Positions 13,217 to 36,725 of a DNA stretch of 64,000 nucleotides are shown one piece after another. A program made the translations under genes and the position numbers. The notes below the pieces were generated by a model, which ran no database searches, had not been told where the DNA came from, and saw nothing but the letters and a program-made list of their open reading frames with translations. The DNA comes from Schmidtea nova. Taxonomy: Eukaryota. The DNA lies in NCBI GenBank assembly GCA_044892505.1, contig CM097883.1, positions 284,890,001 through 284,954,000 of the forward strand, in the 5' to 3' direction. Every line of letters starts with the position of its first letter. Within the stretch, counting starts at the first letter, position 1.

Positions 13217-13800
13217 TTGTTATTTTATAAATGTTATATTCTGCTGGGATTATGGGTGGGTTTTAAGTAATTCAGGTAAATCATTAATCATTACTGAACG
13301 GCTAGTGATGAGTACTTATACTAGGGATTCCACGCCCATAACCATACATAACATGACTACTACACGCGTATGCCCTTGACTATTCCCTACTAGTCAAGTT
13401 GGTACTGCATACGGTGGTGGAAAAATGATGGGCAGGTGAGCTTTGTTGCCAAAACTACTCCCCATTTATCTTCCCGCGGGTCCTTGCTGCCGATAGAAGG
13501 TCTTACGCATTTACATTCTATGGATGTTCGTTTCTTACTGCATTTTATACTACATATCCTTATGATCTATCATACGCTTTTCCCAATGACTTTCCTTAAT
13601 GAATCTACAATGTAATTAATCAGTCCCTGCGTAGAAACGGTCGGTTTGAGAAAATTACGGATGCGATTTTCTATTTCGATGATTTCAGTGTTGTTAATTT
13701 AATTTTATTTAGTAACCTCGCCCGATGAGAGACAAAATTTACACAGAAAATACTTTTATTAAAATACTAAAACAGGTTGTTATTTTACATGGATGTTTTC

Positions 13801-14385
13801 CTAAGCGAATTCCAGACTAATCTCCTGAATCAACTCCGCTTCGGTTAAGGAGTTCAAGTGGTGGATTTGTTCGTCCAGGCGCTTCGCAAATTCTCGGCGA
13901 CGACGACGCTGTCGCGATCCCATTCGATGTTTTCGAAGCTGTTGGTTTATGACCGGCGCTGACGCTATTGTTCTCGGGGGATCACTGAGAAAAATAGGCA
14001 AATCTTCCGTTGCGAGAGTGGGGGTCATGATGATTCCCTCTTCCGTCCCGCAAGCGACATCTTGGTGAGTGCATTGTATCCAGCGCTGAGCCGTGATCGG
14101 CCGGATTAGCGCTCGCAATTCGGAGTCGATGTAACTTCTTGTTACTGCGTTCAGGCAATTTCGTAGTTCTCTCTGGACAGCGTCTAGTTCCAATTTAGTT
14201 GCGGCCAGTGCTTCCTGCATTCGCTCAAGTTTTTTCGACTGGTCCTTCATTTGTTCGGGCGAGAACCACTTCGCTCTCAATTCATCATTGGCGACCGTGA
14301 GTCGCTTGATCTGTCGCTGCTGGTCCCTCAACTTCCTCTCTTGGATTTGTCCCATGATTTTCTTGGAATTTTCTGAAGTCGGCAT
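13801..14385 (-). CDS. LTR-encoded coiled-coil protein (194 aa) with an Arg-rich NLS-like motif
   Basis: ATG in a CAACATG context, AATAAA downstream, motif RQRRRRREF; same translation at 39014-39598. Confidence 0.6.
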   Translation of the reverse strand: MPTSENSKKIMGQIQERKLRDQQRQIKRLTVANDELRAKWFSPEQMKDQSKKLERMQEALAATKLELDAVQRELRNCLNAVTRSYIDSELRALIRPITAQRWIQCTHQDVACGTEEGIIMTPTLATEDLPIFLSDPPRTIASAPVINQQLRKHRMGSRQRRRRREFAKRLDEQIHHLNSLTEAELIQEISLEFA

Positions 14386-14714
14386 GTTGTCTGAATATTA
14401 TAACCATAAATTCGCTGGAGGACCTATCAACAATGATATTTTATTTAGTCTATTATTTACTATCATTAAACGAGATGCATACTAATGTTTTTAATTATTA
14501 AGTTTGTTGCAAAATTAATTAACTATCTAATTATTGAAGGCTCAAAAATTTTATTGAACTAATTTGAGATTATTAAATGAAATTCCTAATGACTATAACA
14601 ACTACAATACTGGATATTAATAAATCTACATTACGACACTATTAACAAAATGAGACACTTCAGAAATTTTTTAAAACATTTATTAAATTCAAAAATAGGT
14701 GGCCATTTATTCAA

Positions 14715-15191
14715 TTATCCATCTTCGGTCATTTTTCCCCGATACGAAAATATCGATTTAATTTGCAAATTTGTGTGGATCCCTGGGCTATTGGACGAGG
14801 CTTGCTGGAAGCGGATTCTCTCAGCTTCTCGAAGGGGTCGTATGGCTGTATTGAACTTGAACCCCAATTCCTTGAAGGTAGAGGCTGGAATGAACCCCCA
14901 ATAAATGACACATTTCGGGAATCCACCTTTGTCCAACATCAGGATGAACCAGGCGGCGTGCCATGATTCGAATTCCTCGTCTGGAATGATTGGCCAACTA
15001 GCGCATCCCCGGTACCATACGTGATGCCGTGGATGGTCCCATACTGTAAATGGACAGGCGGTTTCAAGCTCTCGGCGCCATGCCCACATTTTTTGATGGA
15101 TTTGTTGTAAAATTTCGAAAGGAGCCGGCTTTAATGGGCTAACTCGGGCTCGTTCTTGTCGCTTTTTGATAGTGTATCTATGTTTAGTCAT
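14715..15191 (-). CDS. LTR-encoded hypothetical protein (158 aa, Trp-rich)
   Basis: GC-richer than its flanks, AATAAA directly after the stop; same translation at 39928-40404. Confidence 0.55.
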   Translation of the reverse strand: MTKHRYTIKKRQERARVSPLKPAPFEILQQIHQKMWAWRRELETACPFTVWDHPRHHVWYRGCASWPIIPDEEFESWHAAWFILMLDKGGFPKCVIYWGFIPASTFKELGFKFNTAIRPLREAERIRFQQASSNSPGIHTNLQIKSIFSYRGKMTEDG

Positions 15192-16786
15192 GATTCTAAA
15201 ACGATGCTACATTTTATAATAGTTACAATTTACATCAATAATTAATCATAGTAAATGTTATCTCTCATCGTGATACCCTTATTATTTGCCTTCCCCTTAG
15301 ACCTTAGCTGAAATCAAGAAAAAACTGTTGCTTGTTACGGTATACATTACTCTCGTATCTACTTAGATTTATCTGTTTACGATCAATTTTATAGTCGAAA
15401 AAAAGGGTGATTTGTCTGCTTGGATTTTTAAGATATTGATACCTCAAAACGGAAGTTCTCTCACGTCATGTATCCCTAGCTTATTCGAAAACGCTCTTTT
15501 GTATCAAATGCGGTCGACATAAATTTTCTAAGGTTTATTAGATGTTTATCTAGCAGCTGTGCTGCGGTGAGGGGGAACAATTTGTGCCTCCTCACGGTTA
15601 AAAAATTCTTTCATATCTTTAAGCTTTATCGAAAAATTATCGTCCCCTCTGTAGCTAAATTGATCGGAAAATAATTCCCCGGATTTGTTGGGTGTCCCAT
15701 GTGCAAATCTCATCCATCACTAACAAAATTATGTTTTGTTATTTATTACTTTACCGTGTGTGGAGCCCTCGAGCACCACGCCACGGACGGACACCTTGGG
15801 AACCTAAAGCTCCCAACGGCGCAAGATTAATATGCTAGGTTAAATAGTTTAAATATAACATAAATCATAATGAGACAAATAATAAATTATAATATGATAA
15901 TGACATATGAATACAGCGATATCAAATAATAAACGTAAATATACCAAAAATACCTCAATTGAATTCTGAAAATTTATTGATCAAAATCGGTCTAAACGGT
16001 GATCGTCGTCGGGGCAATGTGCAATCTAATGTAAATTTTTAGTCTGAACACAAGTCTAAATTTTTGTCTCAAACAAAGTCACAAGTCTACAATCTATATT
16101 CTAACAAAGTCTAAGTTTTTACACAGTCTAACAACGTCTCTATTCTACCAAAGTCTGATTTTATGAGAAATCTGATCAGTATTTATACTGATCAGTCGTG
16201 TCTAGACTGACCAATCAGGTTTGGCCAGTTTCATGGTGGTTTTTAATTATTGTTTTTGATTCTAATTAATTTTTATTTTTTAGATTGTATTCTTCCTTGG
16301 AGGTCCGGGTTTCAAAAACAATTATTCAATAACAAGTACTTTTATTTGGTTTTAATTATTATTATTTGTATTTTATTTGTTTTTAGATGTCTCCTGGGCC
16401 CGTTAATATCTATAAATTCATTTATTTTTATTTATAGCTTGTACTTAGTTATTCTATATTTTTACTATATTATTCCTTTCTTTTAATAAATAAATATTCC
16501 CCTTTTTACCTTATTTTTCTCTTTTTTGTTTTAATTAATCTACTTTTATTTCACTGTTCCCTCTATTTGGCTGGCCCAACATCACTCGGGGACCCCTAAA
16601 ATTGCGTCCCGCAATTAATTATACATTTACACCTATATCATCATACATAAAAATTAAGCAGATAAATGTCAATTTACATATACACAAAGAATCACATAAG
16701 GTGATAAGTTTTTATACTTAAGCACAAAGTCATATTATTGTTAATTGTACGTGGATCATACATAAAGTGAATGTAATTTATCAGTT

Positions 16787-17359
16787 TTACACAAGCTCTT
16801 TGATTTCATGATTGGTATTGGATTGGATTGGGGTTCTTTCGCTGATTGTTCGTAGTTCGTAGTGGCTTTGGATTCGGTTTAGGTGTTTTCCCATTGGCTT
16901 TTGGGTTCTGCTGTCTTGTATTGTTGTTCGATTCAGGATGACTTGTTTTTGTTTTAGGATCTTCACTCGGTATGATGTTATGAGGATTGTGATCGCGATA
17001 ATGGTCACGCTGAGTGCAAGGATTATTATAATTGCGATGATCCATTTTTCTTGATATTCTATCTCTGCTTGGGCTAAGCTTTTTATGGGTTCTCGACCTT
17101 CTTTTAGGGTTTTTCTGATTGTTTTCAATTTGATTCGATGTTCATATAGGACCTGTTGAAATTTTCCATCGTTTGGGTTGTCTGATGTTATCTGTTGAAG
17201 TTGGGTGATTTCTTGTGTTGCTTCGCTGATTAGTTTATCCAGCTCTTGATAGGTTTTCTCGGGTAGGGCTCGTAGCTCCTTCTCTGTGAGTTGAAGATCT
17301 TCTCTTTGTAGGGTGATTGTTATTAGGTATAGGAATATCGGTATTCTGAGCTTTTTCAT
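16787..17359 (-). CDS. Small type I membrane protein (190 aa)
   Basis: Signal-like MKKLRIPIFLYLITITLQ, helical ectodomain, TM segment WIIAIIIILALSVTIIAITILI, basic tail. Confidence 0.65.
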   Translation of the reverse strand: MKKLRIPIFLYLITITLQREDLQLTEKELRALPEKTYQELDKLISEATQEITQLQQITSDNPNDGKFQQVLYEHRIKLKTIRKTLKEGREPIKSLAQAEIEYQEKWIIAIIIILALSVTIIAITILITSYRVKILKQKQVILNRTTIQDSRTQKPMGKHLNRIQSHYELRTISERTPIQSNTNHEIKELV

Positions 17360-17441
17360 ACTGTTTTCTTTACAGATAGATCAATACAATTTGACACTAC
17401 ATTTCATACAATTATTTACAAAAATATATTTTCCGCTTTAT

Positions 17442-18503
17442 TTACACAATCGTCTCGTTTGGTTCGTAGAAACCTTCGTCCTGAGGTTCTACCTGGTTCG
17501 TGGGGAGTGGTATCCAAACAACCCTGCTCCTCCACATTTCGACTTCATCTCGATACATGTGAGATATCTGGATCTCCTCGTCCAGCAAATATTCTAGGTA
17601 ATTTGCTTGTTCTGTTAATGTTTCTATTTGCTTCTCTAATTCGATTACTTTTGTCTTTTGTTCGTCTTCCTTCATCATTTTTGTTACGGCTGCCGTTATA
17701 CTTGCTTCTTTGGGTATTACTGATACTGTTACTCGTTTCTGTTTCAATTCTTCGTTTTCTTTCATCAAATTCGTTAAATTTTCCTCATAACTTTGTTTCT
17801 CTTCCTTTAACCTTTCTCTGGTTCTTTTTAGCTCTATTTTCTTCTGGGTAATCACTCCTTGGTAACCATTTATATCTCTCTTCATCTCTTCTTCTTTCTG
17901 ATTCCATATTCCGGTGAGCATAGTTTTCAGTTGTTCTTGATTAGCTAGTTCTTCTCCCATTCTTTGAACTTGATAGGTTAGTCCTTTAATTTTCTTTGCT
18001 TGTTCCCGGATAAATTGCTGTCTTTTTGTATTCCATCTTTTATTTAACACTTCCTGGTTGATTTTCTGCTCTAATTCGTCTTTTAGTTCATCGATCTCTT
18101 TATATAATTTCCAGTCATCACTATAAGCTGTCCTTTCTATTATTTCTCTAGCTTTTTCGTAAGATTCTTTCGCTTCTTTCTTCCAGTATCTTGCTTGTTC
18201 TGTAATCGAATACATCTTGTGTTCGGCTTCCATCTGCTGTCTGTCTCTTTCCTCTCGTCGCTCTTTCATCATTCTCTGATAATATTCCTTTTGTTGTTGT
18301 AGCATTTTGTATACTTCTTCTATTTTTTCTCGATTTCTTTGACTTGATCTTTCCGCTTCTTTTAATAATTCGGCTTGTCTCTCTATCTCCTCTTGCTTTC
18401 CATAATATGCATTGACCCATATTTCAATCTGTTCTAGATGATCGCTAATCGCTTCTGCTTGATGCATCGTAATTTCCTGTAAGCATACTTCGATATTTCC
18501 CAT
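17442..18503 (-). CDS. Coiled-coil protein (353 aa), unknown function
   Basis: Long E/K/Q/R-rich heptad ORF on the element's coding strand, with a possible N-myristoylation start (MG). Confidence 0.65.
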   Translation of the reverse strand: MGNIEVCLQEITMHQAEAISDHLEQIEIWVNAYYGKQEEIERQAELLKEAERSSQRNREKIEEVYKMLQQQKEYYQRMMKERREERDRQQMEAEHKMYSITEQARYWKKEAKESYEKAREIIERTAYSDDWKLYKEIDELKDELEQKINQEVLNKRWNTKRQQFIREQAKKIKGLTYQVQRMGEELANQEQLKTMLTGIWNQKEEEMKRDINGYQGVITQKKIELKRTRERLKEEKQSYEENLTNLMKENEELKQKRVTVSVIPKEASITAAVTKMMKEDEQKTKVIELEKQIETLTEQANYLEYLLDEEIQISHMYRDEVEMWRSRVVWIPLPTNQVEPQDEGFYEPNETIV

Positions 18504-18616
18504 TGCTATAATTTCAGAAAAAAAATTTTAATCGGTTTATATATCAGTTATTTTTGTTTATATAATAATTTTTGGGTATTTAACTGTACATATTATTTAC
18601 ATGATCACTTTTCTTG

Positions 18617-19999
18617 TTACGTCAACCATCCTTTTCTATCCGCTTTCTCATTCCTTTCCATTTCTATGTATAGGGTGTCTGCATATAATCGTTCCCATAG
18701 GCTTTCTTTTGTTATAAACATCGGTTCTCCCGCTGCTAATCCACATTCTGTGGTTGGTTTCTCGCTCGTACTCGCATGTTTCTCTGTCTCAAAGAATTTT
18801 TCCACTGGTTTTGCTACACTTCTGATTCTTATAATGACTCCTACTTTCAAGGGCCATTCTACTAGGTCGTCGTATTCTCCTTTAGATAGCGAGAAAAATA
18901 TTGACACATGTGTTCCTCGTCCTCTTCCGTCTCCATTTGGGTATAGCTTCAATCTCACTTTAGCTCCGTTTCTCCATAAATAAAATGGTGGGCTTATTAC
19001 TGCTGTTTTCGTCATATTTCTGGCCTCTGTTAATTTGTCTCTAAAATCTGTCACTTTCCACACATATGGTGCGATTGGTAACTTTTCCTCGGTATCCTGG
19101 GTGAGTTTGTTGTACTGGATTTTCATTCCTTTAGCCAATTCTTCGATAGCTTTTATCTTTTCCTCCATCTTTTCTCGTGTTAGTTCGAATTGCTCTCTGG
19201 TTTCCAACAGTAGGTTTACCATTATCTTGTGTGACTCTATTTCTCTTTCTAATTTTGTGATTGTTTGTTCGGTTTCTTTTGTTGTTTCGTTTGTCATTTC
19301 CGCATGCTTTAGCAATGCTTCCTCCAGATGTTGTTTCATGGTTTGTTGCGTTCTTTTCTCCATACATCCCTGTTTGTTATAAGGACATTCCCTTGGTTTC
19401 TCCGTGCACACTTTCCAATGTTCTTGTAATTTTACTTCTACCGTTATCTCGCATTCGTTTGAACATATTCCTACATATTGTCTACATACTTTCTCCTCTT
19501 TTACGTTCAGGTGTTCTTCTTCGATCTTTCTCCTCGTTTCTCGAGTTCCACAATATTCGCATAGACTTTCCTCTTCTTTACATTCATCTTTGTGCTGCTC
19601 TTTATTCTTTATAGTTATTTTTTGTTGGCATTTGTTACATTCGGTTCTCTTCTCCTCGCAGTTCTCCAGATGGTTCTCGAGATCGCGTATTTGTCCTTGC
19701 CATATACATGGTTGATTTATACATTCGGTTTTCGTGTTCATGATTTCTCTCTGAGTTGCTCTATCTGGTCCGGTTTCTTCGAATTTTATTTGTCCTTCTT
19801 TGCATTCTGGACATTCTGGTGGTCTTTTCATACTTAACTCGTGTATGCATTTGGTACATACTCTGCATCCGCATAGGGTTTGTCTTGGTTTCAATATTAT
19901 GTTTTTACAATTTACACAAGTGAGTCTCTGACTCCATTTCCTGTTCTCGGCTCTCAAAATTTCGATTATCCGCTCTTCGGCTTTTCCTTCTGTATTCAT
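18617..19999 (-). CDS. TRAF: Full-length intronless TRAF-family protein (RING, TRAF zinc fingers, coiled coil, MATH)
   Basis: RING CVNC...CGCRVCTKC...CPEC; zinc fingers CINQPC...HLENC and CPYNKQGC; MATH YVWKVTDF...SPPFY...LKLYPNGDGRGRGTHVSIFF...GEYDDLVEWP. Confidence 0.92.
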   Translation of the reverse strand: MNTEGKAEERIIEILRAENRKWSQRLTCVNCKNIILKPRQTLCGCRVCTKCIHELSMKRPPECPECKEGQIKFEETGPDRATQREIMNTKTECINQPCIWQGQIRDLENHLENCEEKRTECNKCQQKITIKNKEQHKDECKEEESLCEYCGTRETRRKIEEEHLNVKEEKVCRQYVGICSNECEITVEVKLQEHWKVCTEKPRECPYNKQGCMEKRTQQTMKQHLEEALLKHAEMTNETTKETEQTITKLEREIESHKIMVNLLLETREQFELTREKMEEKIKAIEELAKGMKIQYNKLTQDTEEKLPIAPYVWKVTDFRDKLTEARNMTKTAVISPPFYLWRNGAKVRLKLYPNGDGRGRGTHVSIFFSLSKGEYDDLVEWPLKVGVIIRIRSVAKPVEKFFETEKHASTSEKPTTECGLAAGEPMFITKESLWERLYADTLYIEMERNEKADRKGWLT

Positions 20000-20089
20000 T
20001 CTACAATGATATATACACTTGATTTGTTATCTATTTTTTGATTTTTCTTGTTTTTGTTTTACATATTTACAATTTTTCGCTTTATTTAT

Positions 20090-20446
20090 CTACGGCTCGT
20101 TTGTTGAATCTGGTTCTGGGTCATTTTCTGATCTGTTTATTGCCCAATTTGTCCATCCATCCTCTGCTTCTTCTATCTCTCCCATTGTTAAACGGTCTAT
20201 CTCTATTGCTTGTCTCTGATTTATGTAGCTCATCACTTGATTCTCTCTGGTAAGTTGCGTTATCAATCTCTGTTGCTCCTCGATTCTGTGGAGTTGTTCA
20301 AAACTATTATTATAACTTTCGGATAACAAATTCTGTTTCTCAATTAACTGATTTTGTAGTGAGTTGATTGTTCGTATTAACATGTCACACTGGGCTTTCC
20401 ATCGCATAGCCATAGTAGTTTCTGCTATTTCTTCTTGTTCGTTCAT
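20090..20446 (-). CDS. Short coiled-coil protein (118 aa)
   Basis: ORF on the coding strand bounded by AT-rich spacers, with a heptad pattern. Confidence 0.5.
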   Translation of the reverse strand: MNEQEEIAETTMAMRWKAQCDMLIRTINSLQNQLIEKQNLLSESYNNSFEQLHRIEEQQRLITQLTRENQVMSYINQRQAIEIDRLTMGEIEEAEDGWTNWAINRSENDPEPDSTNEP

Positions 20447-20571
20447 TTTCTAAATTATATACATTAATCGTTTTCTCGATTTCTCTTTTTATATTTTTAT
20501 AATATCGATACCCATACTATTACGGTAATGCATTGTTATTTACACTATTATTTACAGTCATATCCCGCCTC

Positions 20572-22491
20572 CTATATCACCATCACTGTCTTTCCTTCGT
20601 ACCGCTCTTCATCTTCTATTTGTCTCCAAAATTCTTTACCTTTCGTCCTCCTTTGGAATTCTTTCTGTACTTCTTCCGGTAATTCTATACTGTAGTTCAT
20701 AATCTTTATATCTGGCCAATGTGTTATTGGTTTCTTGTTGAATACATCATATATCCATATTATTAATAATACTGTTATTACTGGAATAGTTGCTGCTAGT
20801 ATTCCTAGACCAATTAGTTCTCTAACTTGTTTGTTTACGTCCATCTTCGTAATTTCACTCTGGTTAATCATTGGTCCGTATTGTCCCTTTAGTTTATTTA
20901 GTAGTTGTTCTCGTTCTTGTTGTTTTCTTTTAACTTCTTTAATTACTTCTTCCGGCGTCCATCTTGCGTAAGGGTCTATTACTACTTGTTCCGCGTCCAT
21001 TTGTTTCGTTGTCTGACTTAATTCTTTAAATTCGAGTTTTCTCACTTTCCCTTTGGACGTTGAGTTTACCGGTGTGTAGTATGTTTCGCATCTTTCCTGC
21101 TGATTTCCCAATATGTCCGTCTTTTCTACCGCACATATCTCGTATTCTCTATTAAATTTCAGATTTTTGATACTCATTTCTTCTTTTCCTTTTACGTTTT
21201 CGCAGTATCGTGGCTGTCTTTCTTTTTGTTCCTGAACTACTGCCCAACATATTTCTAACGTTTTATTGTCTATTCTCCATAGTATAAGAGTTGCTGTAGT
21301 ATTCTTTTCGGTTTTTATTTGTATTTCTTGGTTTTTCTGTTGTCCATTAGGTTTAAAAGTAGTGGTATACCTCGTTTTTCCTTTGTTCCGTTGTCTTCTG
21401 CTTTTTCGCGTTGTCTTTCCAATTCTTGTTCTGGTGGGTGTTTTATATATTTTGCATTCCAGTTCATTTACTGTTATTTTGTCGCTTTTCCTAATCAGGC
21501 ATATTTCGTACGTTTGATTGCTTTCTAATCCTTCTATCTGTATTGTGGTTGTTCCTCTGTTTGTTCGACATTGCGGCGGTGTATTCTGGTTTGTTTTCCT
21601 TTCCTGCTTCTTCCAGCATACGCCTTTGACGTCCGGTTCTATTCCGGTTAACTCCAACATTATTGTTGTTCTCCGTTTGGTGCGTATATTTCTTCTTCTT
21701 CTTCTTATGAACTTTATTGCCTCCCCAGGTTGAAATGTTTTACAAATTGTCGTTCCTTTCTTGTGTCTTTCTTTTTCTAGTAAACATAGTTCATACGTCC
21801 TGTCTGCTTTTACTTCTGATATCTTGGTTACTTTATTTGTTTTCCTTTTCCGACTCGTCTTTATTTCGCTTACGCCAATTTCTTCGTTGCTTTTGGCCCA
21901 ACACTTTGGGTTGGTGTTTTGGGTGTCGTTCATCTCTGTTACTGCCATTGTGTCAATGTCTATCCCTTCTTCTAACCGTTTTAACATTGTTAATATGAGT
22001 GCTAAACATAGTAATTCTGTTTGGTAGGTCACTCTTTCAGTTTCATTTGTGGTTACTCTTACTTCGGGCCTGTCTATGGTAATTTGTATAGTTGGCGTTG
22101 TTCGTCTGTCTATTGTCTGAGGTTTCTTGTTTTTTGTTCCTTGTGTCTCTGTTCCTCTACACTTTCCTACGACATAGTCTCCTTTGGATGGCTGCTGTAT
22201 TGTTATGGTTACTTTGGGTGTTAGGTAACTTGCACATGCAATTGTCTTATGTGATCTCGGATCCTTTGGTTTCCGAACGGTGCACATTCTGTACCAAGTA
22301 TCTAGCTCTAGGTCATCGATCTCTATGATTTCTTGTTCGTATTCTGAGATCCTGCAATCCATTGGACTATTTTGTCCCGATATTTTGTCCTTTTTTGACC
22401 AACATACTCGTTCGATTCCTTTTGCGTTTCCAATTTGTATTGTCGCTCTTTCTTCACATATTATTCCTTGAGTGGGACTAATTAAGGTCAT
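20572..22491 (-). CDS. Fibronectin type III-like repeat type I membrane protein (639 aa; frame open upstream to the TAA at 22666-22668)
   Basis: About four repeats ending in IxxLxxxxxYExC; TM segment LIGLGILAATIPVITVLLIIWIY; signal-like PELLLLTVIMTLISPTQG spans the annotated ATG. Confidence 0.65.
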   Translation of the reverse strand: MTLISPTQGIICEERATIQIGNAKGIERVCWSKKDKISGQNSPMDCRISEYEQEIIEIDDLELDTWYRMCTVRKPKDPRSHKTIACASYLTPKVTITIQQPSKGDYVVGKCRGTETQGTKNKKPQTIDRRTTPTIQITIDRPEVRVTTNETERVTYQTELLCLALILTMLKRLEEGIDIDTMAVTEMNDTQNTNPKCWAKSNEEIGVSEIKTSRKRKTNKVTKISEVKADRTYELCLLEKERHKKGTTICKTFQPGEAIKFIRRRRRNIRTKRRTTIMLELTGIEPDVKGVCWKKQERKTNQNTPPQCRTNRGTTTIQIEGLESNQTYEICLIRKSDKITVNELECKIYKTPTRTRIGKTTRKSRRQRNKGKTRYTTTFKPNGQQKNQEIQIKTEKNTTATLILWRIDNKTLEICWAVVQEQKERQPRYCENVKGKEEMSIKNLKFNREYEICAVEKTDILGNQQERCETYYTPVNSTSKGKVRKLEFKELSQTTKQMDAEQVVIDPYARWTPEEVIKEVKRKQQEREQLLNKLKGQYGPMINQSEITKMDVNKQVRELIGLGILAATIPVITVLLIIWIYDVFNKKPITHWPDIKIMNYSIELPEEVQKEFQRRTKGKEFWRQIEDEERYEGKTVMVI

Positions 22492-22665
22492 GATTACCGT
22501 TAGTAATAATAGTTCTGGTTTAAGGAATGGGTTTATTGTTTGTTTGTAGCCTGTTCTTTTTACTTCGTTTTTATTTTTATAGTTGTTGTTTCTTTGTTTC
22601 CCAAATTCATTTTTCTTATCATTTTTCTCTGTGTCCCTTCCTTTCTCTTCACTGTCCTCTTTATC

Positions 22666-25600
22666 TTATAACTCATGATCCTCTGGATTTTCTCGAGTAC
22701 TATCGTCGTCGTTTCCTGTATTGTCGCCTCCCCTTTGGTCGTTGAAAATGTCGTCCTCGACATTAATTGCTTCTATCATTTTTTCATACGTTATGGTTGT
22801 GAGTATACTTGCTTCATATTCTTGTGTTACTGCCTGCTTAGGTATTTCCTTATCGGTTAATTTACAATCTAGAATCTCTTTCTTGGCTTTTATCCAATTA
22901 TTAAGGTACGTTTTCATTAGTTCTTTCCATTTGTCCGTACGTTCTGTTTCCTTTGGGTTGTTTGTGAATCGCAAATCTTTTCTTCTCATGAAGATGTCTA
23001 TTATCTTTGGCCATTTGTTTATTATTAATGCACACTTTATATACAAATTTTGGCCTTGTTCCATGAACTCGTTGATCCTGAATGCTGGTTCATTGGTGTT
23101 TGGGTTCATCCAATTGAGTATTGTTTCGGTTAGTTCAGCGTTATGCATCATGGAATGTACGCTAGCTTTTTTAACTGTCCTTGTAAGGTATTCTATTTCC
23201 TCCTGATTTGTGATTGTTTTTATAAAGTTTATCACCTCCCAATTGTGCGCTAACAACGCTACGTCTAGTATTGAGCTGTCTTTGTTAGTTCTTCCCATGA
23301 GTCCTGCACCTGCTTCGTACAGTTCCTGTAACACTCGGGTTTTTGTGTTCGCTCTTGCTGCGAATATCATGAGAGTATCTCCCTTTTTATCTTTCATGTT
23401 CATGTCACTTCCGCACTCTTGCATCAACCGTGCAATTTCGACTATCCTCCTCTCTTTTCTTGCTCGTAAGGCTCTATGTATTGGCAATACTCCATTCTTT
23501 GTTAATAAGAAAGTCACTGGCATTTCTCTTTTTATGATCATCATATCGTTTTCATTGTAAGTTCCTTCCGCGTATGCGTGTATCTTTTCCACAATTGCTC
23601 CGAGTATCTCCAGTGTATGTTTAGAATTTTCGAATTCTGGTAATAGTTCTTTTGCTTTGTCCTGTATCGCATCTAACCTTTCTTGATAGGGTACCTCTGC
23701 GCTGAAAAGTGGTGTAAATTTCCTTTTGCTTTCTCTTTCCTTTCGACCTAGGAATTGTTTGCATTTTTCGGGGTGGTTTAATATGTCTACTAGTTTGTCA
23801 TACTCTTCCTCCACCGTTTTGTACTTATCTTGAAAATTGGATATATCTTTGTAAGTTATCGACTTGGTTAGCGATTTAGCACACCATTCCCTAATATTCC
23901 TGAATAATGCTTCTTTTTCACTTTCGAATTTCCACTCCTCTTTGTTTTTGGACATTATGATATTTCCTCTATCTAATAACGTTAACAGTGTTTTCTGATC
24001 ACAAACGAATTTTAATAGAAATCGTAATAACGCGTTTTGTCCTTCACTGTATACCTCGTTTATATTTAACACCCATGTATCATTTTCAGATCTTTTCCAT
24101 TTTATTAGCTTGCGTATTGTTTTGCAGTTACCGATTTTTATTGCCTCCTTGATTATATCACCTTTGATCAGTTCGTCTATTTCCCAAGTGGCCTTCTCGA
24201 TTATTTGTTTGAGCATTATCTGATTTGAGCTCCATATTGCGTGATTCAAGACCGTTTTGTTTTCTCTATCGCGTTCCGTCCAGTTGAAATTGGCATTTAT
24301 CAAAAGGTCTATTATTGCTTTATCCGATTTGTAGATGGCTGCTACCATTAATGGTATTTCTTGTTCGCTATTCCCAAAACCAAGGTATTGGTTTGTTTCC
24401 TTTGCGATTTTTAGAAATTCTTTTACTCTCTCTACTTCTCCCCATTTTATGGCGTTATGTAATGCTGGTTGTCCTCCTATGTCTTCTAGTGAAAGTATTT
24501 CTGGAATTTTTTCCAGTAGTTCTGAAATGACTGGTTTTGTTGGTAGTCCCCTTGCGTAATCACTAATTATCGACTGAATATCTCTTAATATATCGTCTCT
24601 GACATGCCATTTTCCCATTATTTCTCTGGCTTTTAGTACAATTTCCTTGTTTCTTTTTTCTTGTTGATTGTTTTCTGCTTCGGTACTTTCATTGGTTGCT
24701 CTGAGCATATTCATTCTGGCTGTCTGGGATCTGGTTATTATTCGTTCTTCTGGCGCTGTGGTTATTGTCTTTGGTACTTTTTTACATCTGCATGTATTAA
24801 CGTATATTGGTCGTATCAATGGTCGATTAACAAGTTTTACCTTCACATTGTTTTCCTTTTTGTATATAACTTCGTAAGGGCCTTTTCCTGGTCTTTGTAG
24901 TTTTTTAACGGTTCCTGGTATTATTTCTGGGGTTTCTATCATTACCCAATCTCCGGGTTTAAGATCATTTGTTTTAACATTTTTCTTTTGATCGTGTAGG
25001 TCCTTGTAACTTTCTTGATAAAACTTTATGTTCAGTTCTGCTGTCTTCCATATCTCTTGCATTCGTTCTTTGAATTTGGTGACGTAATCATCTTCCTCCA
25101 TATATTGAGACAAAGGTGGTTGATATTCAAGATCTATTGGCATATTGCATTCCCTTCCATACATTAATTGAAATGGACTCAATTTTGTTGCTGCGTGTAT
25201 CGACATTCGGTATGCCATTAGACATAGCTTTATGTACTCATCCCAATCTGTTTGGTGTTTGCTTACATAATTGGATAACATTCGAATCAATGTGCCGTTA
25301 AATCTTTCCGTTTGTCCATTGGTTTGCGGATGATATGGTGACGTTCGTAATTTGGCTATTCTGAAGTAATTTGTTACTTCATCTAGTATTTCGCTCATAA
25401 AATTTGTTCCTTGATCTGTTAGTATTTGTTTCGGGGTTCCGTATCGACAACATATTTCCTCTACTAAAATTCTTGCTACGGTCTTTGCTTTTTGATCCGG
25501 CATCGCAAATGCTTCAGGGAATTTAGTCAAATAATCCGTTATTACCAATATATATTGATTCCCGTTTAAACTTTCTGGCAATGGTCCTATTACATCCATT

Positions 25601-25962
25601 GCAATGGTAGTCATTGGTTCTGCTGGTATCGGCATGGGTTTTAAGGGATTTTTCCATTTCTTCCCACTATCCTTTCTTGTGGCACAAGTTAAACAGTTCT
25701 TTATCCATTCCTTTACGTCCTCGTCCATTGTTGGCCAATAATATTTTTGTCTCATGCGATCTAATGTTTTCTTGTCTGACATATGTCCTCCCAATTTTCC
25801 GTCGTGGTATTGAGTTATTATCTCTTTTCGTCTATTACCTGGCAAACACATTAACCGTTTCTCTCCATCTTGTATTAACAACCATCCTTTTTCTATTGTG
25901 TATCGATGTTGGTATTTCCTCATGTGTTCTTTTAACTCCGCATTGTCTTTGAATACATCCAT
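22666..25962 (-). CDS. pol: Integrase (HHCC, DDE, GPY/F) fused to a ~600-aa ankyrin-repeat extension
   Basis: H...GH...C..C zinc finger; MDVIGP, LTDQGTNF, NGQTERFN; GKGPYEV; ankyrin motifs GQPALHNAIKWG, IPLMVAA, GVLPIHRAL, GDTLMIFAAR. Confidence 0.9.
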   Translation of the reverse strand: MDVFKDNAELKEHMRKYQHRYTIEKGWLLIQDGEKRLMCLPGNRRKEIITQYHDGKLGGHMSDKKTLDRMRQKYYWPTMDEDVKEWIKNCLTCATRKDSGKKWKNPLKPMPIPAEPMTTIAMDVIGPLPESLNGNQYILVITDYLTKFPEAFAMPDQKAKTVARILVEEICCRYGTPKQILTDQGTNFMSEILDEVTNYFRIAKLRTSPYHPQTNGQTERFNGTLIRMLSNYVSKHQTDWDEYIKLCLMAYRMSIHAATKLSPFQLMYGRECNMPIDLEYQPPLSQYMEEDDYVTKFKERMQEIWKTAELNIKFYQESYKDLHDQKKNVKTNDLKPGDWVMIETPEIIPGTVKKLQRPGKGPYEVIYKKENNVKVKLVNRPLIRPIYVNTCRCKKVPKTITTAPEERIITRSQTARMNMLRATNESTEAENNQQEKRNKEIVLKAREIMGKWHVRDDILRDIQSIISDYARGLPTKPVISELLEKIPEILSLEDIGGQPALHNAIKWGEVERVKEFLKIAKETNQYLGFGNSEQEIPLMVAAIYKSDKAIIDLLINANFNWTERDRENKTVLNHAIWSSNQIMLKQIIEKATWEIDELIKGDIIKEAIKIGNCKTIRKLIKWKRSENDTWVLNINEVYSEGQNALLRFLLKFVCDQKTLLTLLDRGNIIMSKNKEEWKFESEKEALFRNIREWCAKSLTKSITYKDISNFQDKYKTVEEEYDKLVDILNHPEKCKQFLGRKERESKRKFTPLFSAEVPYQERLDAIQDKAKELLPEFENSKHTLEILGAIVEKIHAYAEGTYNENDMMIIKREMPVTFLLTKNGVLPIHRALRARKERRIVEIARLMQECGSDMNMKDKKGDTLMIFAARANTKTRVLQELYEAGAGLMGRTNKDSSILDVALLAHNWEVINFIKTITNQEEIEYLTRTVKKASVHSMMHNAELTETILNWMNPNTNEPAFRINEFMEQGQNLYIKCALIINKWPKIIDIFMRRKDLRFTNNPKETERTDKWKELMKTYLNNWIKAKKEILDCKLTDKEIPKQAVTQEYEASILTTITYEKMIEAINVEDDIFNDQRGGDNTGNDDDSTRENPEDHEL

Positions 25963-25994
25963 ATTTCGTGAGCTTAGGAATTCTATGATGGGTT

Positions 25995-27122
25995 TTAGTT
26001 CTTTTTATCCTCTTGCTGATCTTTCTTTAACTCACTGAAATCCAAATCCTCTGCTATCACTATGCATATTCTTTGCACTTCTGGATCTGTTAGTTCTGGA
26101 AACGTCAATCTTGACATACAATCCGCGTTGGCATTCGCTTTCTCTGATTTGAATTTTATATCTGGTGAATATTCTTGTAATTGCATCGCCCATCTCCTTA
26201 ATCTGCTGGATGTTTCCTTGTGTTGTCCTAGCCATACAAGTGGTTGATGATCCGTGGTTATGCATATAACGTGTCCCCATAATAGATATTTAAAGTGTTT
26301 TATTGCTAATATTATTGCCAATGCTTCTCTTTCCGTTACTGAATAATTCTTCTCGTGTTTCTTGAATGTTCTGCTATAATATCCGATTACTCGTTCTTTA
26401 CCTTCGTCATCATATTGTCCTAACACTGCTCCTGCTGCATATCCACTTGCGTCAGTCGCGAGTAAAAATGGCTTCTTGAAATCCGGGTGAACCAATATTG
26501 GTGCAGTTATTAGCTTATCTCTCAATGTTTCAAAGGCGGTTTGTTGTTCGCTTCCCCATATGAATGATACGTCTTTCTTTACTAGCTCTTGGATTGGTTT
26601 TGCAATTCCTGCGTAATCCTTTATGAATTTCCTATAATAACCGCATAATCCGAGAAATTCTTGGATCTGCGTTATCGTCTTTGGTACTGGACATTCTTTT
26701 ACTTTATCAATGTTTCTGGGATCTGGTTCCTTTCCTTTTGCGGACACAATATGTCCTAAGAATGTCACTTTCTCCTTTGCCCAATCGCATTTCGATGGTT
26801 TGAGTTTGAGTTTCCATTGTCTCAATCTAACAAATACATCTCTGATATCTTGGATGTGTTGTTCAAATGTGCTTGAGTAGATCAGTAGGTCGTCAATGTA
26901 AACCATGCATTGTTTTATGCCGTGGGTAACGAAATTCATACATCTTTGAAATGATGCTGGCGCATTGGTTAGTCCGAATGGCATTTTCCTAAATTGGTAC
27001 AAGTCTCTTCCAATGGTGAAAGCAGTTTTCTCTTTGTCTTCCTCCTTCATTTTAATTTGCCAGTATCCGCTTTTCAAATCCAATGATGTAAAATATGCCG
27101 CTCCTTGTAATGTCAATAACAT
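25995..27122 (-). pseudogene. pol: Reverse transcriptase (C-terminal part) and RNase H
   Basis: LDLKSGYWQ, MPFGLTNAPASFQR, YIDD, ATDASG, REALAI. Separated from the RT N-terminus by an in-frame TAG (27123-27125) and from integrase by a 1-nt deletion at ~26000. Confidence 0.92.
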
Positions 27123-28180
27123 CTAGTTGATGTCTGGTAATGGGTATGTATCCCGTTTTGTTACCGCATTTAATCTCCGATAATCAATACAAAATCGTTG
27201 TGTTCCGTCTTTCTTTTTCACCATTACAACTGGGAATTGCCACGGTGAGCAGCTTGGTTCAATTACTTCTGCGTCTAGCATTTTCTGTACTTCTGCTTCT
27301 GCTACTGATTTCTGCGCTTCAGCTAACTTGTATGGTCTTAACGCAATAGGCGTTTCGTCTGTTAGTGGAATCGTATGTAGTGTGACGTCGCATGTCCCTA
27401 GATCTAAATCGGATGCTGCGAATATGTCTTTATATTCTATCAGTAATCTTTCTAGCTGCTTCTTTTGATCCTCATTTAATAGTTGGCTATCAATGTTCCA
27501 AGTGGGTTCCTCCTCTTTTACTCCTTCTTTTATTGGTATTTCGATATCTATCATTGGAGTTAGTTTACCCAATCTTTCGTTTTCATAAATTATTTTATCC
27601 TCTTCATCGAAATTTACTACATTTATTGGGATTTCTCCGTTGTCATTCGCACTCACTAATCCCCTTGCCATTGGCAACGACTTTCTCTTTTCAAATCTTT
27701 TACTGGGTTCAAAGATCATGTCACCTTCTATTGTAGGGTCTATTTTTACGAAACATATTTTCTCTCTCCGTGCTGGTACGATTATTTGTTTCGAACTTGT
27801 TACTTTTGCTTCTATTGCGCATATCTGTCCTGTCCTGTCCTTTAGTCTCATTGTTCCGAGATCAATAACTATTTCTTTAAATAATGCTGGCATTAAATCT
27901 GTGCCTATAATGCATGGTACGCTCAGTGCTGGTATTACTGCTACGTACGTTTCGATTTCTGTGTTTTGATGTTTTATCTTCACCCACCATCTTCCGGCAA
28001 CTTCTACTACTTCTTTACTGCATGCTATTACGTGAACGTTGGTTCTCTCGATATCCCGTCTTTGTTCTTGTGGTATCCATTTTATATCTATTGCTGAGAT
28101 ATTTGCTCCTGTATCAATCATCGCTTCTATTTCCCTTCCGTTAATTTCGATTGTTGTAGTTAATACTGGACCGGTGTTTG
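27123..28180 (-). CDS. pol: Aspartic protease, post-protease beta domain and RT N-terminus (C-terminal part of the 1114-aa ORF)
   Basis: [47 protein letters not shown]. Confidence 0.9.
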
Positions 28181-28639
28181 ATGACATTACTGCAATTGTA
28201 TGTGAGTCTCCTTGCGGATCTACGCTTCTGCACCGTCTCGTTCTATAGTCTTCTGGTATCATAGGATATATGTTTGTCATCGGCATCATTTGCATTGTAT
28301 TTTGTCTCATCCCTGGTGTTGGTTCTTGGTACATGGTTGGTGGGGGTGCGTAACACTTCCACATTTCCGCTGGATTCTTTTCGACGTACTGTGGTACTTG
28401 ATTTTTAAATACTTGACCTCCTTCGTTATCATCATCATCGTCGTCACTGGAATCGTCTTGGGTTCTGTACCCTTTCATTCTTTCCCATAGTCCTTTTCTC
28501 TCTTTCTTTAGTTGTTGTCTTGCTTGCTCGTTATTCATTATCTTTTTAAATTTTCGTCCCACCTCTTCATCGGTTCCTTTCATTTTTGCCAGTATTTTTA
28601 GGAGTCTCTTTATTCGGTGAATATCTTTTGAATGACCGT

Positions 28640-30473
28640 GTAATACCATTGTTTTAGCCAAAAATGGTAAGAATCCTACCACCAATTTCCAATTTACTTT
28701 CTTTTCTCGTTTATAGATGTCAAAACAGGCTAACATTTGCGTTATTATTACTCGTATTATTTGTATAATTAGTATAACACCAAGTATTCCTGCCATCATT
28801 TGTCCAAATATTAAAAATCTTCCCCACATCGCTTTCATCATGTTCTCCGTTGCCTTCTTAAAGTGGGCTGGTGACAATAATAATTCGTAATTTGGTCCAC
28901 CTTGGTAATTTGTTCCTCCTGTTATTGTTACAATACTGGATAGCACCGCTTCCCTTCTTGCTGGAAATAGTATGTTTTGCCTCGCTGCCTCTAAGTCTTT
29001 TGCGCTATAGAATCCCATATTACTTACATCTACGTCTTTAAATTTTCGTCCTTTTGATAGTTGCATCAATTCAAATTCCCTTGGTGCTGGTACCTCTGTT
29101 CTTGATGGAAACATAACCCAATTTCCGTCTGGTTTTTGGTATAGTGGTCCATATGCGTTGCTGCAATTGAAAGGGTTTGGTTCGAAGCTTATTGGATTTA
29201 TGATTCTTGTCACTGGTTGCACATATCTTACTTTCCCTTTATATTCGATTTCTAGTTCGTTAGTACACTGACCTGGTTGTAGTTTTGTCATTGTTGCCAC
29301 CTTTGCGTTCGTCTTTTTACATATGTATACGTACATGACCTCTCCGACTACCCTTCCAAAATGACCTTCTCTTAATGGTAATAATGGCATTGCACTATCC
29401 GGGTTTGTGATTGCAACTGCTAATTTTGTCTTTAATATTTCCCTATTTAATATGCAATCGTTGTTAATTAAATCGTAATACACTTTTTGTAGTGACGCTT
29501 GTCCTCTATGGAATAGAAAATCCATTTTATTGTTCATGTACAGGTGTAATTTAACATCGTTCGTGTGTACTTTGCGTTTCGCACTAGGTACTTCTTGTTT
29601 TGATACAAAAATGCCGGGGTAGTTGGTTTCCAACATAGCTACTCCGCATTTCAAGGCTGTTTTTCCTTTTACAAACCTCATTCCGATATCTGCATCTGAG
29701 GTAATTAGTACCGTTGGTGTATTTCTCATTTTAATTTGTTTTTCTTGTGTTCGGGTTTCAATCTTTTTCTCTCCTCGTACTGTGTCTTGAAGTATTTTTC
29801 CTCTTGCTGCCTCGTCTTCTTCTTCCTCTTGGAAGGTTTTCCCTTGTATCTCATCGAATTCTGCTTCCTTTAACAGTTGTAGTTGACATTCCTTTCCTCG
29901 TATCTGGTAGGTTAGGGTTGACATACCAGTCTGACAAGTGTTTGACTCGATTTTGCACATAGGTAGAGTTTTCATTTCTCCCGTCGTTGGATCGAAGAAT
30001 GCCTCGTACGTTTTTAGTTCCACTGTATACGTATCTATTACCACTAGGTTTGTTGCTGCTACTTCGAATATTGGATATGTTGCTCCTTGGCAGTACCCTT
30101 CTCCTCCCGTAATAGCTCCTGCTACATAATATGTTTGTTGTAATATCACTCCCGTTTTTCCTCTTATCTTTACTCTATCTCTAGTCTCTACTTCTCCATG
30201 TTTGAATAATTTTTCACAGTCTTCTCCTTGCAGCATTACCGATTCTCTTTCCGTTCCTGGCATCACGATTGCTGAATAATGGCGGTGCCCACAATAAAAA
30301 GCAAATCTGGTTTTATAAACTTTGCATTCTCTGACAATTGTTCTTATCAGTTCAGCTTCCTGATATACGTGGTATAATTGTCTCTTTTTTAATGTTTTTA
30401 GCTCCGTTGGGGTTGCGTCCTTACATTGTTCTGTCCCTCGTAGTGAATATTTCTCACCTAATGCCATTTGATC
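28640..30473 (-). CDS. env: Envelope glycoprotein, class III fusion type (chuvirus G / retroelement gB-like)
   Basis: Cys-spaced ectodomain beginning FEVFD(*)DQ, with [13 protein letters not shown], [33 protein letters not shown] and GFYS, then TM segment [21 protein letters not shown]. Family assignment is from recalled motif patterns. Confidence 0.75.
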
Positions 30474-33400
30474 TCAATCGAATACTTCAAATGCTGTTGC
30501 TCCGTCAGTACTAATCATCCATATTAACATCATCATAATGATAGAACTCAAGTTTAGTGATGATTTCCCGTTTCCTGTTCCCGACTTTTCCTTTTCCAAT
30601 TCTCCCAATATCTCTTCGAATTTCCTTTTCATATTTTTGGCTTGGTTTTTCTTTTGGTTCGTTTTTGTGAATGTTTCCCATCCTCCTTTACTGATGATGT
30701 ACGGTTCTATTTCCTTCTCTATAATTTTGGCTGTATTCTTTATATGTCTTTCAAGTGCTGTGGGTTTCAGTCGACCTCTACTCAGTGTCAGCAGATTGTA
30801 AATGGTGTATGCCATAGCTATTAAATATTTGTTATCCGTCTCTGCTCCTTCCGTTAACTTCTTTATCAACATCGTGGTTCCTTGCCAATCTAGGTGGTTT
30901 GACCTTGTCTTCTCTTTTATTAATTCTGGTAGGATTGGTGCGATGGCGCTATGCAGTGATTTCGCCCTTTCGCCTATTTCGTTTATTCTCCACCATTTCT
31001 TTAATTCCGGATCGATTATTGCCAGTATTTCCATTAACATCTTTGATATCCATTCCTCGCCTTGGTATGTTTGTGTTGTTTCTTTTTCTTTCGTTTCGGC
31101 TATTTTATTTAGTTTCTTTAGACACAAATCCCATTGATCCCGTCTTTTTTCCTCTCTTGATTTTATAACTACATTTGCTGGATCCATCTTGGGTCTACCT
31201 CTAGGTCGTTTATCCATTGTCGTGCCCGTTTCTACTAATCTTGTTTCTCGTCCAGTTTCTTCTGTGACGTCTCTTGGTTCATTGGCTCTTTCTTCTAACC
31301 ATCTTTCCATTTCTTGTGTGAATTGTACATTTTCTACATTTGCCCTCCTTGCTTCCTCTTCTGCTATTTCATTTACTTCCTCTATGATTATTTCTTGTTC
31401 GACTTCATCTTCGGTGTTGGTTACCGGTATTGCTGTTGGTAATTCTTGGATTCTTTCGAAAATGTTATCATCTTTCTCTTTTGTTAGCTCTATTAACTCC
31501 TCTAACATATCATCGCTATCTGTAAAAATTTCGTCTACATCGTATGGTTCTGGTGGTGTTCTTTCTCTTGTCTCTCTTGGTGTTGTTCTAGCTTGTTCTG
31601 AGCTTGTTCCTGGAGTCATTACCGATTTCATTGGGCTCGGCGTACTCATACTTCCTTTTGGTTTCTTTTCCTCTTTCAATTTCAATGGTTGACCTGCTAT
31701 TGCTGCTACTGTCAATGTATTTGCGATATCTAATTGCGCTGGCGTTATTCCAATTTCTAAGCTGTTATCTAATGATCGTCCTTGGTGTTGTAAATGGAAT
31801 GGTGGTTCATATCTCAATTTCTTTTTAATGTCTCGGACTTTCTCCACTATTCCTACCCAAAACTCTTCCTTTTCTTGGTTCGGATATACTATTCTTAGGT
31901 GTACTTTCTGTGGCGATTCCTGCGAGAATTCTTGGTTTCTCCATTTTTTAATTACGTGATCCAATTGTTCTGGACACCACTCGTTAACTCTTTTGTATTC
32001 GGCGATTGCTTTTGCTACTTTACGCAGGCAGGTTATGTCTTCTCCATTAACTACGAAAAAATCTGCGAGACCTTTTACTAATTTTCTCTTGCCATGAGCA
32101 TTGGTTTTTAATATTTCGACAAATTCTTCCGTTTTTTGTTTTTCTCTTTCCAACCACATGGTTGCCGTTTCTGGTCCGTCTAAATCCGCTGGCATGGCTT
32201 TTCTTGTTACCATACAGACTCTTCCGGTTTCCGGTTTGTGATCGTCTTCTATGCTTATTTCATATTCCTCTTCGTATTCGCCTGCTTTTGGTTCCCAACA
32301 TTTTCCTCGTTCGTTCCATTGTTTTTCTACAGGTGTTCGTAATCGTCTGTTGAGATTGAGTTCTTCTAATACGTCTTCCCATTCTGGCCAAATCCGCCAA
32401 TTTCGATAAATGTCTACTATTTGTTGTAATTTATGCACAACTTCTTTTTGTCGTTCCCGTTCTCTTTTCTCATCTTTAGCAGTTTCTCTTGGTGTATCGT
32501 CCATTCTGATAACGTGGATGGTTTGGTGATTATCCCATATACCAATTTTATATAGCCGTCTTTCGTCGTGATCCCACAATACATGTTCGTTGTATTTCAT
32601 GATTATGTCATCTTCCCATTCTTCTTCTGGTTCTCTTTGTAATAGGGTCTCGTTGATGACATTTACTAATTCTTTTATGGTACAATCTGCTACCACTTCA
32701 ATTTCTTTGGTATCCTCATTAGGCAATTCCACTGAAATTTTTAGATCTGTTATTTTCCCTTGTCTGAACATTGCTTTTCCCATTTTGGCAACTACTTTTC
32801 CGTATGAGATCTGTGACCATCTCGTGTGACTTGTGTCACGTATGCATTCGATACATCGTTTCAGCTTTTCGTATTCGCTTCTCATTAACTCCTTTCTATG
32901 TTTTTTGATTTGTGGGATGATTTGTTCTATCATGGAGTTTAGATTTCCTCGTAAGATTCGACCTTTCTCATATTCTAACCGTGGTTTTATCTTCTTCTCG
33001 AAACACGTATTCGCTTCCTTTGCTACTTCTTGTAGGTTCTCTTCTCTCTTATCATCGCATATCGATAATGTTGTCACCTCTCCTGGCCATATGCCTGTTT
33101 CTATCAAATGCGTCCTTTTCTTCACTAGTCCATTCTGTGAATAGAGGAATTTGTTTTTATATGAACTCCCTAATCTGTCTTCCACCCATTGATAAATATC
33201 TTCCGTGAGTGGAGCTTTGATCCAAATCCTTGGCAAACATGTTTTTATCTCTATTAGTATTATATATTCATGGAGTGGTTCTTTTAATAATTTTCCTACG
33301 TACTGGCTTAGTGTTTCTACTTCTCGGCCTGGTAACCACTCTTTATAGTTCATTTGTAATATCGCTCTCATGAATTTCCGATAGTGTTTCTTGTCGATGA

Positions 33401-35963: not shown

Positions 35964-36513
35964 CGGGATTACTTTTGTATACTCAATTTTCCTGTCTTAT
36001 CGTGTTCCGATTCTTTTCTTCCTTGGTTGCTTGGTTTGGTTTGATTGATTTATCTAAAATACAAATGTCACTTCAACGATACTCTATTGTTATCGTTGCG
36101 CTTTTATTCCCTTTTTACGGGACTTCTCATTACTGGGTTTCTATTATTTTTCCCCATTCCCAGATTCCCCTTTATTTAAGTCTATTTAAATTATCTATAT
36201 ACTAGTCACAATTATCCATTTAGTCATAACAATTATCTATCGGTTATTCAAATACATCAATTATTTTTCCCGCGGTCTCCCAATTTATTTGTCGTTCGAA
36301 CGCTCTAATTCCCTGAGTCATTTGACTCGATTATTATTTTATCATCTCTTTATCTTTCTCTCTGCTAGCCTCTAATTATTAATTCTGCCGGTCTTTCCGG
36401 TCAGCTCCTATTTCTCAATTCTACTTGCATGCATTATTTTAGGTCGCATAATCAGCTTTACTCGCATTTCTCAATTCCTGGTGCGCACTATTCTCATTAT
36501 CGTCGACGATCAC

Positions 36514-36725
36514 AACTCTGGGCCTATATTCCCTCTGTTGTTATTTCTTATCACTTGCAACCCTGGGCCTATATTCCCTCCGTTGCTACTCAAACGATTG
36601 TAACCCTGGGCTTATATTCCCTCCGTTACTATCTTCCTTTAATTTTAAATAATTGCAACCCTGGGCCTATATTCCCTCCGTTGCTACTCAACAATTGTAA
36701 CCCTGGGCCTATATTCCCTCCGTTA
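36514..36725. repeat. Five dispersed copies of AACCCTGGGCCTATATTCCCTCCGTT in the 5' leader
   Basis: Copies begin near 36514, 36559, 36603, 36657 and 36699. Confidence 0.85.

Follow-up and report, generated by a model that had tools for sequence, protein, structure and literature searches.

A full-length TRAF gene in the accessory region of Burro-type giant LTR retroelements of Schmidtea nova

The window studied here, a 64,000-nt stretch of Schmidtea nova DNA (contig CM097883.1), carries a full-length TRAF gene within a Burro-type giant LTR retroelement. The gene recurs in hundreds of element copies, evolves under purifying selection, and likely goes back to a single old capture from the planarian host TRAF lineage. 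We regard it as fairly probable that the element TRAF serves as survival and immune-signaling cargo, kept so that cells expressing the element survive. The coordinates of the element and its genes are given in Table 1.

Table 1. Features of the TRAF-carrying element, in window positions and in the orientation of the element from 5′ to 3′
Feature	Positions	Strand	Description	Evidence or constraint
Whole element	13242..41794	minus	Burro-type giant LTR retroelement, 28,553 nt	LTR pair, TG...CA ends, 4-bp target-site duplication ATTC
5′ LTR	38455..41794	minus	3340 nt, with short ORFs at 39014-39598 and 39928-40404
5′ accessory ORF	37629..38090	minus	153 aa, C-terminal IAP-type RING	XIAP/cIAP matches, E about 1e-10
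Polyprotein piece 1	30474..35537	minus	gag with CCHC knuckle; weak BCL2-like stretch near the end	Pfam
Polyprotein piece 2	27123..30467	minus	Mononegavirus-like fusion glycoprotein (env), aspartic protease, start of RT	Monjiviricetes_fusion E 1e-66, RVP
Polyprotein piece 3	25995..27122	minus	RT and RNase H	Pfam
Polyprotein piece 4	22666..25962	minus	Integrase and ankyrin repeats	Pfam
Polyprotein piece 5 (orf639)	20572..22491	minus	Predicted FN3-like repeats, transmembrane helix, conserved tail	Low-confidence model, pLDDT 48
orf118	20090..20446	minus	118 aa, likely coiled coil, conserved acidic tail	dN/dS A-B 0.08-0.13
Spacer ahead of TRAF	20000..20089	minus	90 nt; AATAAA past the upstream stop, two TGTAHATA, TTGTAG right before the ATG	TTGTAG kept in families A, B, and C
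TRAF	18617..19999	minus	460 aa; C8-type RING (aa 28-66), zinc fingers (about 93-231), coiled coil (229-302), MATH (312-447)	Single ORF, ATG to stop, no intron required
cc353	17442..18503	minus	353 aa, likely coiled coil, conserved C-terminal motif	dN/dS A-B 0.06-0.09
tm190	16787..17359	minus	190 aa, likely single-pass membrane protein	dN/dS A-B 0.21-0.23
3′ LTR	13242..16581	minus	3340 nt, with the same two ORFs at 13801-14385 and 14715-15191

Structure of the TRAF gene

The TRAF ORF lies between the LTRs, downstream of pol in the orientation of the element. An earlier note, made from the sequence alone, had described it as a complete RING–zinc finger–coiled coil–MATH protein in the 3′ accessory region, and this description was confirmed by the ORF itself, Pfam and PDB matches, alignment, and an AlphaFold model. 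The product combines a C-terminal MATH/TRAF-C domain, a TRAF-N coiled coil, and an N-terminal RING with TRAF zinc fingers, as is characteristic of the TRAF family. The MATH domain exceeds the Pfam cut-off for both MATH_2 (E 7e-21) and TRAF-mep_MATH (E 2e-18), the two models being PF22486 and PF21355, and in a phmmer search against PDB it resembles the structures of TRAF5, TRAF3, TRAF2, and TRAF1 (E 1e-22 to 1e-17). The zf-TRAF match (E 8e-5) falls below the Pfam cut-off and Pfam makes no call for the RING; the region of the RING and the first zinc finger matches TRAF6, TRAF5, TRAF2, and TRAF3 in PDB (E 4e-11 to 6e-4, phmmer). In a 14-row alignment, the RING ligands C28, C31, C43, C48, C51, C63, and C66 are invariant and C45 is nearly so. 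The last of these occupies the position of the usual TRAF histidine, where planarian host TRAFs likewise have a cysteine (CGC-type RING). The model (mean pLDDT 84) places a helix at residues 229-302 upstream of the MATH domain, with high pLDDT to about residue 290, and a beta-sandwich at 312-450. An initial homolog search with the ORF returned 12 distant matches only, and the best whole-length matches among 1.84 billion representatives are only about 30-35% identical.

The binding class of TRAF1, TRAF2, TRAF3, and TRAF5 is characterized by three conserved receptor hot spots, namely a hydrophobic pocket, a serine triad, and an Arg/Tyr pair, according to the available part of the source (PMC6125299). 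In an alignment with TRAF3, TRAF5, and the host rows, with pocket residues mapped to TRAF2 numbering by inference, the element TRAF departs from this set: the Arg is replaced by Lys, the Tyr is kept, SSSF becomes ASTS, and the Cys becomes Glu. The full triad is missing from planarian host TRAFs as well. The Glu at the site equivalent to TRAF2 C469 is found in the element TRAFs of families A, B, and C (see below) and in none of the seven host rows, and the aromatic residue after the serine-triad position, present in six of the seven host rows, is Ser in families A and B.

Organization of the carrier element

The carrier was identified as a Burro-type element by its giant size and multi-kilobase LTRs, the location of env between gag and protease, the PR-RT-RH-IN order, and the ankyrin repeats. 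The two LTRs are 99.88% identical, which together with the ATTC duplication indicates a young insertion. All N stretches of the window lie outside the element. The polyprotein of the window copy is broken by three stops and one frame change, and its last piece, orf639, corresponds to the end of a single long frame in other copies. The BCL2-like stretch of the gag piece has a single, weak match to Bcl-xL (E 1.7), and no BIR was seen to accompany the IAP-type RING of the 153-aa ORF. The tail of the polyprotein resembles a receptor and conserves the motifs WPD(I/V)K and IEDEExYE (window 20572-22491; L034:6286-9699), and in family B the FN3-like/transmembrane tail module is internally duplicated. 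In the leader that separates the RING ORF from gag, units of 30-45 nt are repeated in tandem (window 36496-37154). The two LTR-borne ORFs (194 and 158 aa) have no Pfam match; both have homologues in the LTRs of family B, and the 194-aa one also in those of family C.

The insertion lies at the margin of a large inverted repeat (window 1547-13241), whose 5.4-kb arms are 99.4% identical and which contains short ORFs that belong to no known family. On its other side, ORFs of 348, 376, and 1308 aa lie between direct repeats about 11 kb apart (window 43378-52403); the 1308-aa ORF has a weak Endonuclease_7 match (E 0.002), and the segment is perhaps another mobile element. Fragmented RT, RNase H, and integrase sequences of an unrelated gypsy element occupy positions 60571-63851.

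Copies and families

The TRAF is multi-copy cargo of the element rather than a peculiarity of the window copy, which the earlier note had named as a refuting outcome: it is present in hundreds of copies in three families (A, B, and C). Among 6173 candidates, 92 scored matches to the TRAF protein were obtained, comprising 87 from family A (86-100%) and five from family B (79%). Exact 20-mer counts over the whole genome, which are lower bounds (reversed-pattern controls gave 0), amount to 254 for families A and B, 106 for family C, and 239 for the polyprotein-borne MATH of family D, totaling 599. All 40 TRAF loci that were retrieved could be aligned to the element. A TRAF match lies 1.5-4.5 kb downstream of 80 of the 88 family-A marker matches; the remaining eight have no listed TRAF at the expected distance, two of them having a TRAF 20-25 kb away and two more showing the TRAF 20-mer there. 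An open frame of at least 5000 codons is found in 33 of the 88 family-A matches, and the commonest long open frame of this family has 5140 codons.

The gene order is common to families A, B, and C. Family C is 53% identical to family A in the TRAF and 88.5% in RT-RNase H, and orf118, cc353, and orf639 were present at all seven family-C loci. Family D (239 copies) has dropped the RING and the zinc fingers and retains only a MATH domain, located inside the polyprotein (4706-codon frame). Divergence varies along the elements. In the family-B copy L091, env is 98% identical to that of a family-C copy (L074) and 80% to that of family A (window 28668-30467), and the RT is 97.6% identical to that of family A; dS between families A and B is saturated in RT, 0.84 in the TRAF, and 0.37 in MATH. 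Modules have evidently been swapped between element families.

Accessory cassette and its expression signals

Following the FN3-like module on the minus strand, the element encodes orf118, the TRAF, cc353, and tm190, in this order. The spacers between the accessory ORFs are 82-125 nt long (window 17360-17441, 18504-18616, 20000-20089, and 20447-20571) and operon-like in appearance, with AATAAA, TGTAHATA, and YAG ahead of each ATG. Of the 15 accessory starts (five ORFs in three families, scored by eye), 14 have a YAG no more than 10 nt from the ATG, compared to a background of 20-27%, and TGTAHATA, which we take to be a Pumilio/CFIm-like motif, occurs seven times in 615 nt of spacer versus once in 17,178 nt of coding sequence; both patterns were spotted post hoc, and the three families are not independent. 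In the spacer ahead of the TRAF, AATAAA is predicted to act as a poly(A) signal and TTGTAG as a 3′ splice acceptor. Because the splice-acceptor-like YAG sites are conserved and the spacers short, the accessory ORFs are probably expressed. Spliced-leader trans-splicing is known in flatworms, and the spacer signals would fit separate mRNAs produced either by cis-splicing from an LTR leader or by spliced-leader trans-splicing.

Canonical TRAF-binding motifs of the Px(Q/E)E, Px(Q/E)xxD, and Px(Q/E)xT types were found neither in the accessory ORFs nor in orf639. A PIQSN stretch in the tail of tm190 was considered as a TRAF ligand and rejected, as it is not conserved in families B or C.

Selection on the TRAF

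Comparison of the window TRAF with five family-B copies yielded dN of 0.11, dS of 0.85-0.89, and ω of 0.12-0.14 (bootstrap confidence intervals within 0.09-0.19). These values indicate purifying selection rather than the neutral evolution that the earlier note had named as a refuting outcome. The per-domain ω is 0.16 for the RING, 0.12 for the zinc fingers, and 0.13 for MATH, dS being saturated in the coiled coil and likewise between the TRAFs of families A and C. The neighboring accessory ORFs are also constrained (0.06-0.23), and RT (0.003) and integrase (0.018) are much more constrained than the TRAF. The within-family dN/dS (0.14) is biased, the loci having been chosen by protein similarity, and the ratios for singleton and shared variants in family A (0.25 vs. 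0.10), biased by the same choice, were set aside.

Open, full-length TRAFs constitute about 71 of 87 family-A copies (hand count), whereas 91% would be expected from the decay of the polyprotein. Host-level selection on inserted TRAF copies was rejected, as intact TRAFs are no more frequent than the decay of the polyprotein predicts; for the same reason, selection seems to act on replicating lineages, while inserted copies decay.

Origin of the element TRAF

Both MATH trees group the element MATH domains of all four families, A to D, in a single clade (support 97/89 and 99/87). The MATH tree omitted element rows that were broken or nearly duplicated others, as well as frames with fewer than 105 MATH residues, and the long-branched L084 was dropped from the second one (99/87). 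Of two quick trees without bootstrap, one similarly unites the full-length element TRAFs of families A-C (100), and the other separates the element and planarian-type TRAFs from those of other animals (SH-aLRT 86-92). The element clade lies among planarian-type TRAFs, beside single-frame host TRAFs and proteins of Dugesia japonica and Dendrocoelum, with protein P0032 as its sister (96). The AU test did not reject a topology in which all host TRAFs are monophyletic next to the element clade (p-AU 0.19). Since all element MATH domains constitute one clade among planarian-type host TRAFs, a single old capture from this host lineage is likely. The simplest reading would be one capture, followed in family D by loss of the RING and zinc fingers and fusion of the remainder into the polyprotein.

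Host TRAFs and the planarian TRAF expansion

An expansion of planarian TRAFs, with 121 MATH domains, is reported in the part of the source available to us (PMC6109357). The earlier note had raised the possibility that the element is a vehicle of such expansion; in that case, its TRAFs would settle as host genes. At least 360 copies of the full-TRAF families, compared with roughly 73 host-type matches seen, and the occurrence of several single-frame host TRAFs are in line with such a role. Nonetheless, we consider it highly improbable: none of the 25 sampled MATH rows and none of the 11 full-length rows of host TRAFs fall inside the element clade, the genes examined in the main host cluster are often split into separate frames, and none of the 30 host TRAF loci has the accessory genes that neighbor the TRAF in the element. 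An env/protease match was observed near three of these 30 loci. As the host loci are those scoring best against a Pfam model, the sample might not include an element-derived gene that had settled.

The best 150 MATH matches include about 73 of host type, about 63 of which are concentrated in one tandem region (C2:405-455 Mb; hand count), where the genes examined often have the RING/zinc fingers and MATH in separate frames. A cluster of three single-frame host TRAFs was also observed at C3:43.80-43.90 Mb. Because the host MATH matches are clustered and none of those sampled is nested in the element clade, the reported expansion has its source in host tandem duplication; as judged from these loci, it is mainly a tandem cluster, on top of which the elements add hundreds of genomic copies. 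What stands of the proposed role in TRAF numbers is that the element inflates genomic TRAF/MATH counts, whereas a role as the source of host genes does not agree with the position of the sampled host TRAFs outside the element clade. The gene was also correctly described as intronless, in that its ORF needs no intron. Intronlessness as a mark of retro-capture was, however, rejected, since host TRAF reading frames are often single-exon too, and several run from RING to MATH in one frame.

Possible function of the element TRAF

TRAF family proteins are trimeric adaptors and RING ligases. As survival cargo, the TRAF, likely captured once from the planarian host lineage by Burro-type elements and retained under purifying selection as an accessory gene, would have an mRNA of its own, processed at the splice-acceptor and poly(A)-like sites that each spacer provides. 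Like other TRAFs, it would form trimers, and it would keep a zinc-bound RING and work with the IAP-type RING, BCL2-like, and ankyrin modules of the element on survival signaling, while its altered receptor pocket may bind partners other than those of host TRAFs. In this way, it would steer host death and immune signaling, and element-expressing cells would stay alive. The available parts of previous studies report that host TRAFs are required for planarian cell survival, their knock-down raising cell death (PMC7586133), and that Burro1 is transcribed in S. mediterranea tissue under PIWI control (PMC8532177).

Several observations count against the survival reading. With respect to the direction of the effect, the viral TRAF ISKNV ORF111L is described in the accessible text as promoting apoptosis (PMC3352826), which by analogy would allow the opposite outcome. 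Ligase activity is apparently not needed by all families, because family D is devoid of the RING and zinc fingers. Finally, the BCL2-like match is weak, and the search of the accessory ORFs and orf639 yielded no partner motif.

Some features of the element would also suit a TRAF selected for the life cycle of the element itself, where it would act as a scaffold for the other accessory proteins or assist particles bearing env in their ubiquitin-dependent maturation, trafficking, or budding. Besides a fusion glycoprotein, two membrane proteins are encoded by the element, the TRAF is flanked by two conserved ORFs that are likely coiled coils, the pocket Glu sets it apart from all seven host rows, and one family has relocated MATH into the polyprotein. 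We regard this explanation as rather unlikely, since the co-cargo (IAP-type RING, BCL2-like stretch, and ankyrins) points to death and immune pathways, as far as the available part of the source goes (PMC6431247), and the accessory ORFs contain no element-encoded TRAF-binding motif.

The reshaped pocket also invites comparison with a decoy or dominant-negative protein that enters host trimers or sequesters their partners, so that a response against the element would be weakened and death possibly even promoted in some cells. The replacement of the aromatic residue by Ser in families A and B and the element-only Glu agree with this explanation, and a pro-apoptotic viral TRAF exists (PMC3352826, in the part available). 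It appears very unlikely, however, given that all RING and zinc-finger ligands are kept with the domain ω values cited above, beyond the needs of a bare decoy, and that the coiled coil is only 14-22% identical to those of host TRAFs.

A more elaborate form of the survival reading, and by our own estimate a quite unlikely one, is an operon-like survival kit whose spacers are cut by splicing or trans-splicing into separate mRNAs. The TRAF with its reshaped pocket would then dock on the FN3-like tail of the polyprotein, resulting in ligand-independent signaling, a possible retroelement counterpart of the hijacking of TRAFs by herpesvirus LMP1, with hundreds of copies in an animal that regenerates.

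Comparison with known systems

To our knowledge, it is unusual for a retroelement to keep a full signaling adaptor, the known cases being large DNA viruses. Recent work reportedly deals with an anti-apoptotic Burro1 protein. The element TRAF turns the published suspicion that Burro meddles with apoptosis and ubiquitination into a testable gene. It also follows that planarian TRAF/MATH counts mix a host tandem expansion with at least about 600 element-borne MATH copies.

Burro/GYPSM1 elements are described in the available part of the source as giant gypsy-like planarian LTR retrotransposons with MATH_TRAF_C cargo, including a Burro-like element with a 5,140-aa ORF1 that has this domain in an accessory ORF (PMC6431247). 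The elements studied here share with them the size of about 30 kb, the multi-kb LTRs, the gag-env-PR-RT-RH-IN-ankyrin polyprotein, and the MATH_TRAF_C cargo; the commonest long open frame of family A, at 5140 codons, has the length of the published ORF1, and family D, with MATH inside its long frame, matches the Burro1 layout. Of the BCL2-like motif and the BIR of Burro elements, only the former has a match here, and a weak one. Unlike here, where a TRAF extending from RING to MATH lies downstream of pol in a four-gene cassette common to three families, the same text names only the MATH_TRAF_C domain and places the accessory ORF upstream, and it does not give selection, single origin, or the relation to host expansion (PMC6431247). 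No report of a full-length TRAF gene, its selection, single origin, or cassette signals in Burro elements was found in the literature searched, the original Burro paper, supplements, Repbase, and subscription papers lying outside its scope. The presence of the MATH_TRAF_C domain in Burro elements, including its location in an accessory ORF, is already published (PMC6431247).

The planarian host TRAF2-like proteins (Smed-TRAF-2A/B and D. japonica TRAF-2A), as presented in the accessible parts of PMC7586133 and PMC6109357, resemble the element TRAF in architecture, CGC-type RING, TRAF2/3/5-like MATH, and tree clade. The latter differs from planarian host TRAFs in being element-borne, in its altered receptor pocket, and in sharing only 25-31% identity with them; because of this low identity, family-specific RNAi is possible and can spare host TRAFs. 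Similar to the viral TRAFs, i.e., ISKNV ORF111L and other TRAF-like proteins of iridoviruses and giant viruses (PMC3352826, in the part available), it is a host TRAF taken by a selfish element, probably to act on signaling of the TNF-receptor type. Those genes reside in large DNA viruses, whereas here an LTR retroelement spreads the gene to hundreds of chromosomal sites.
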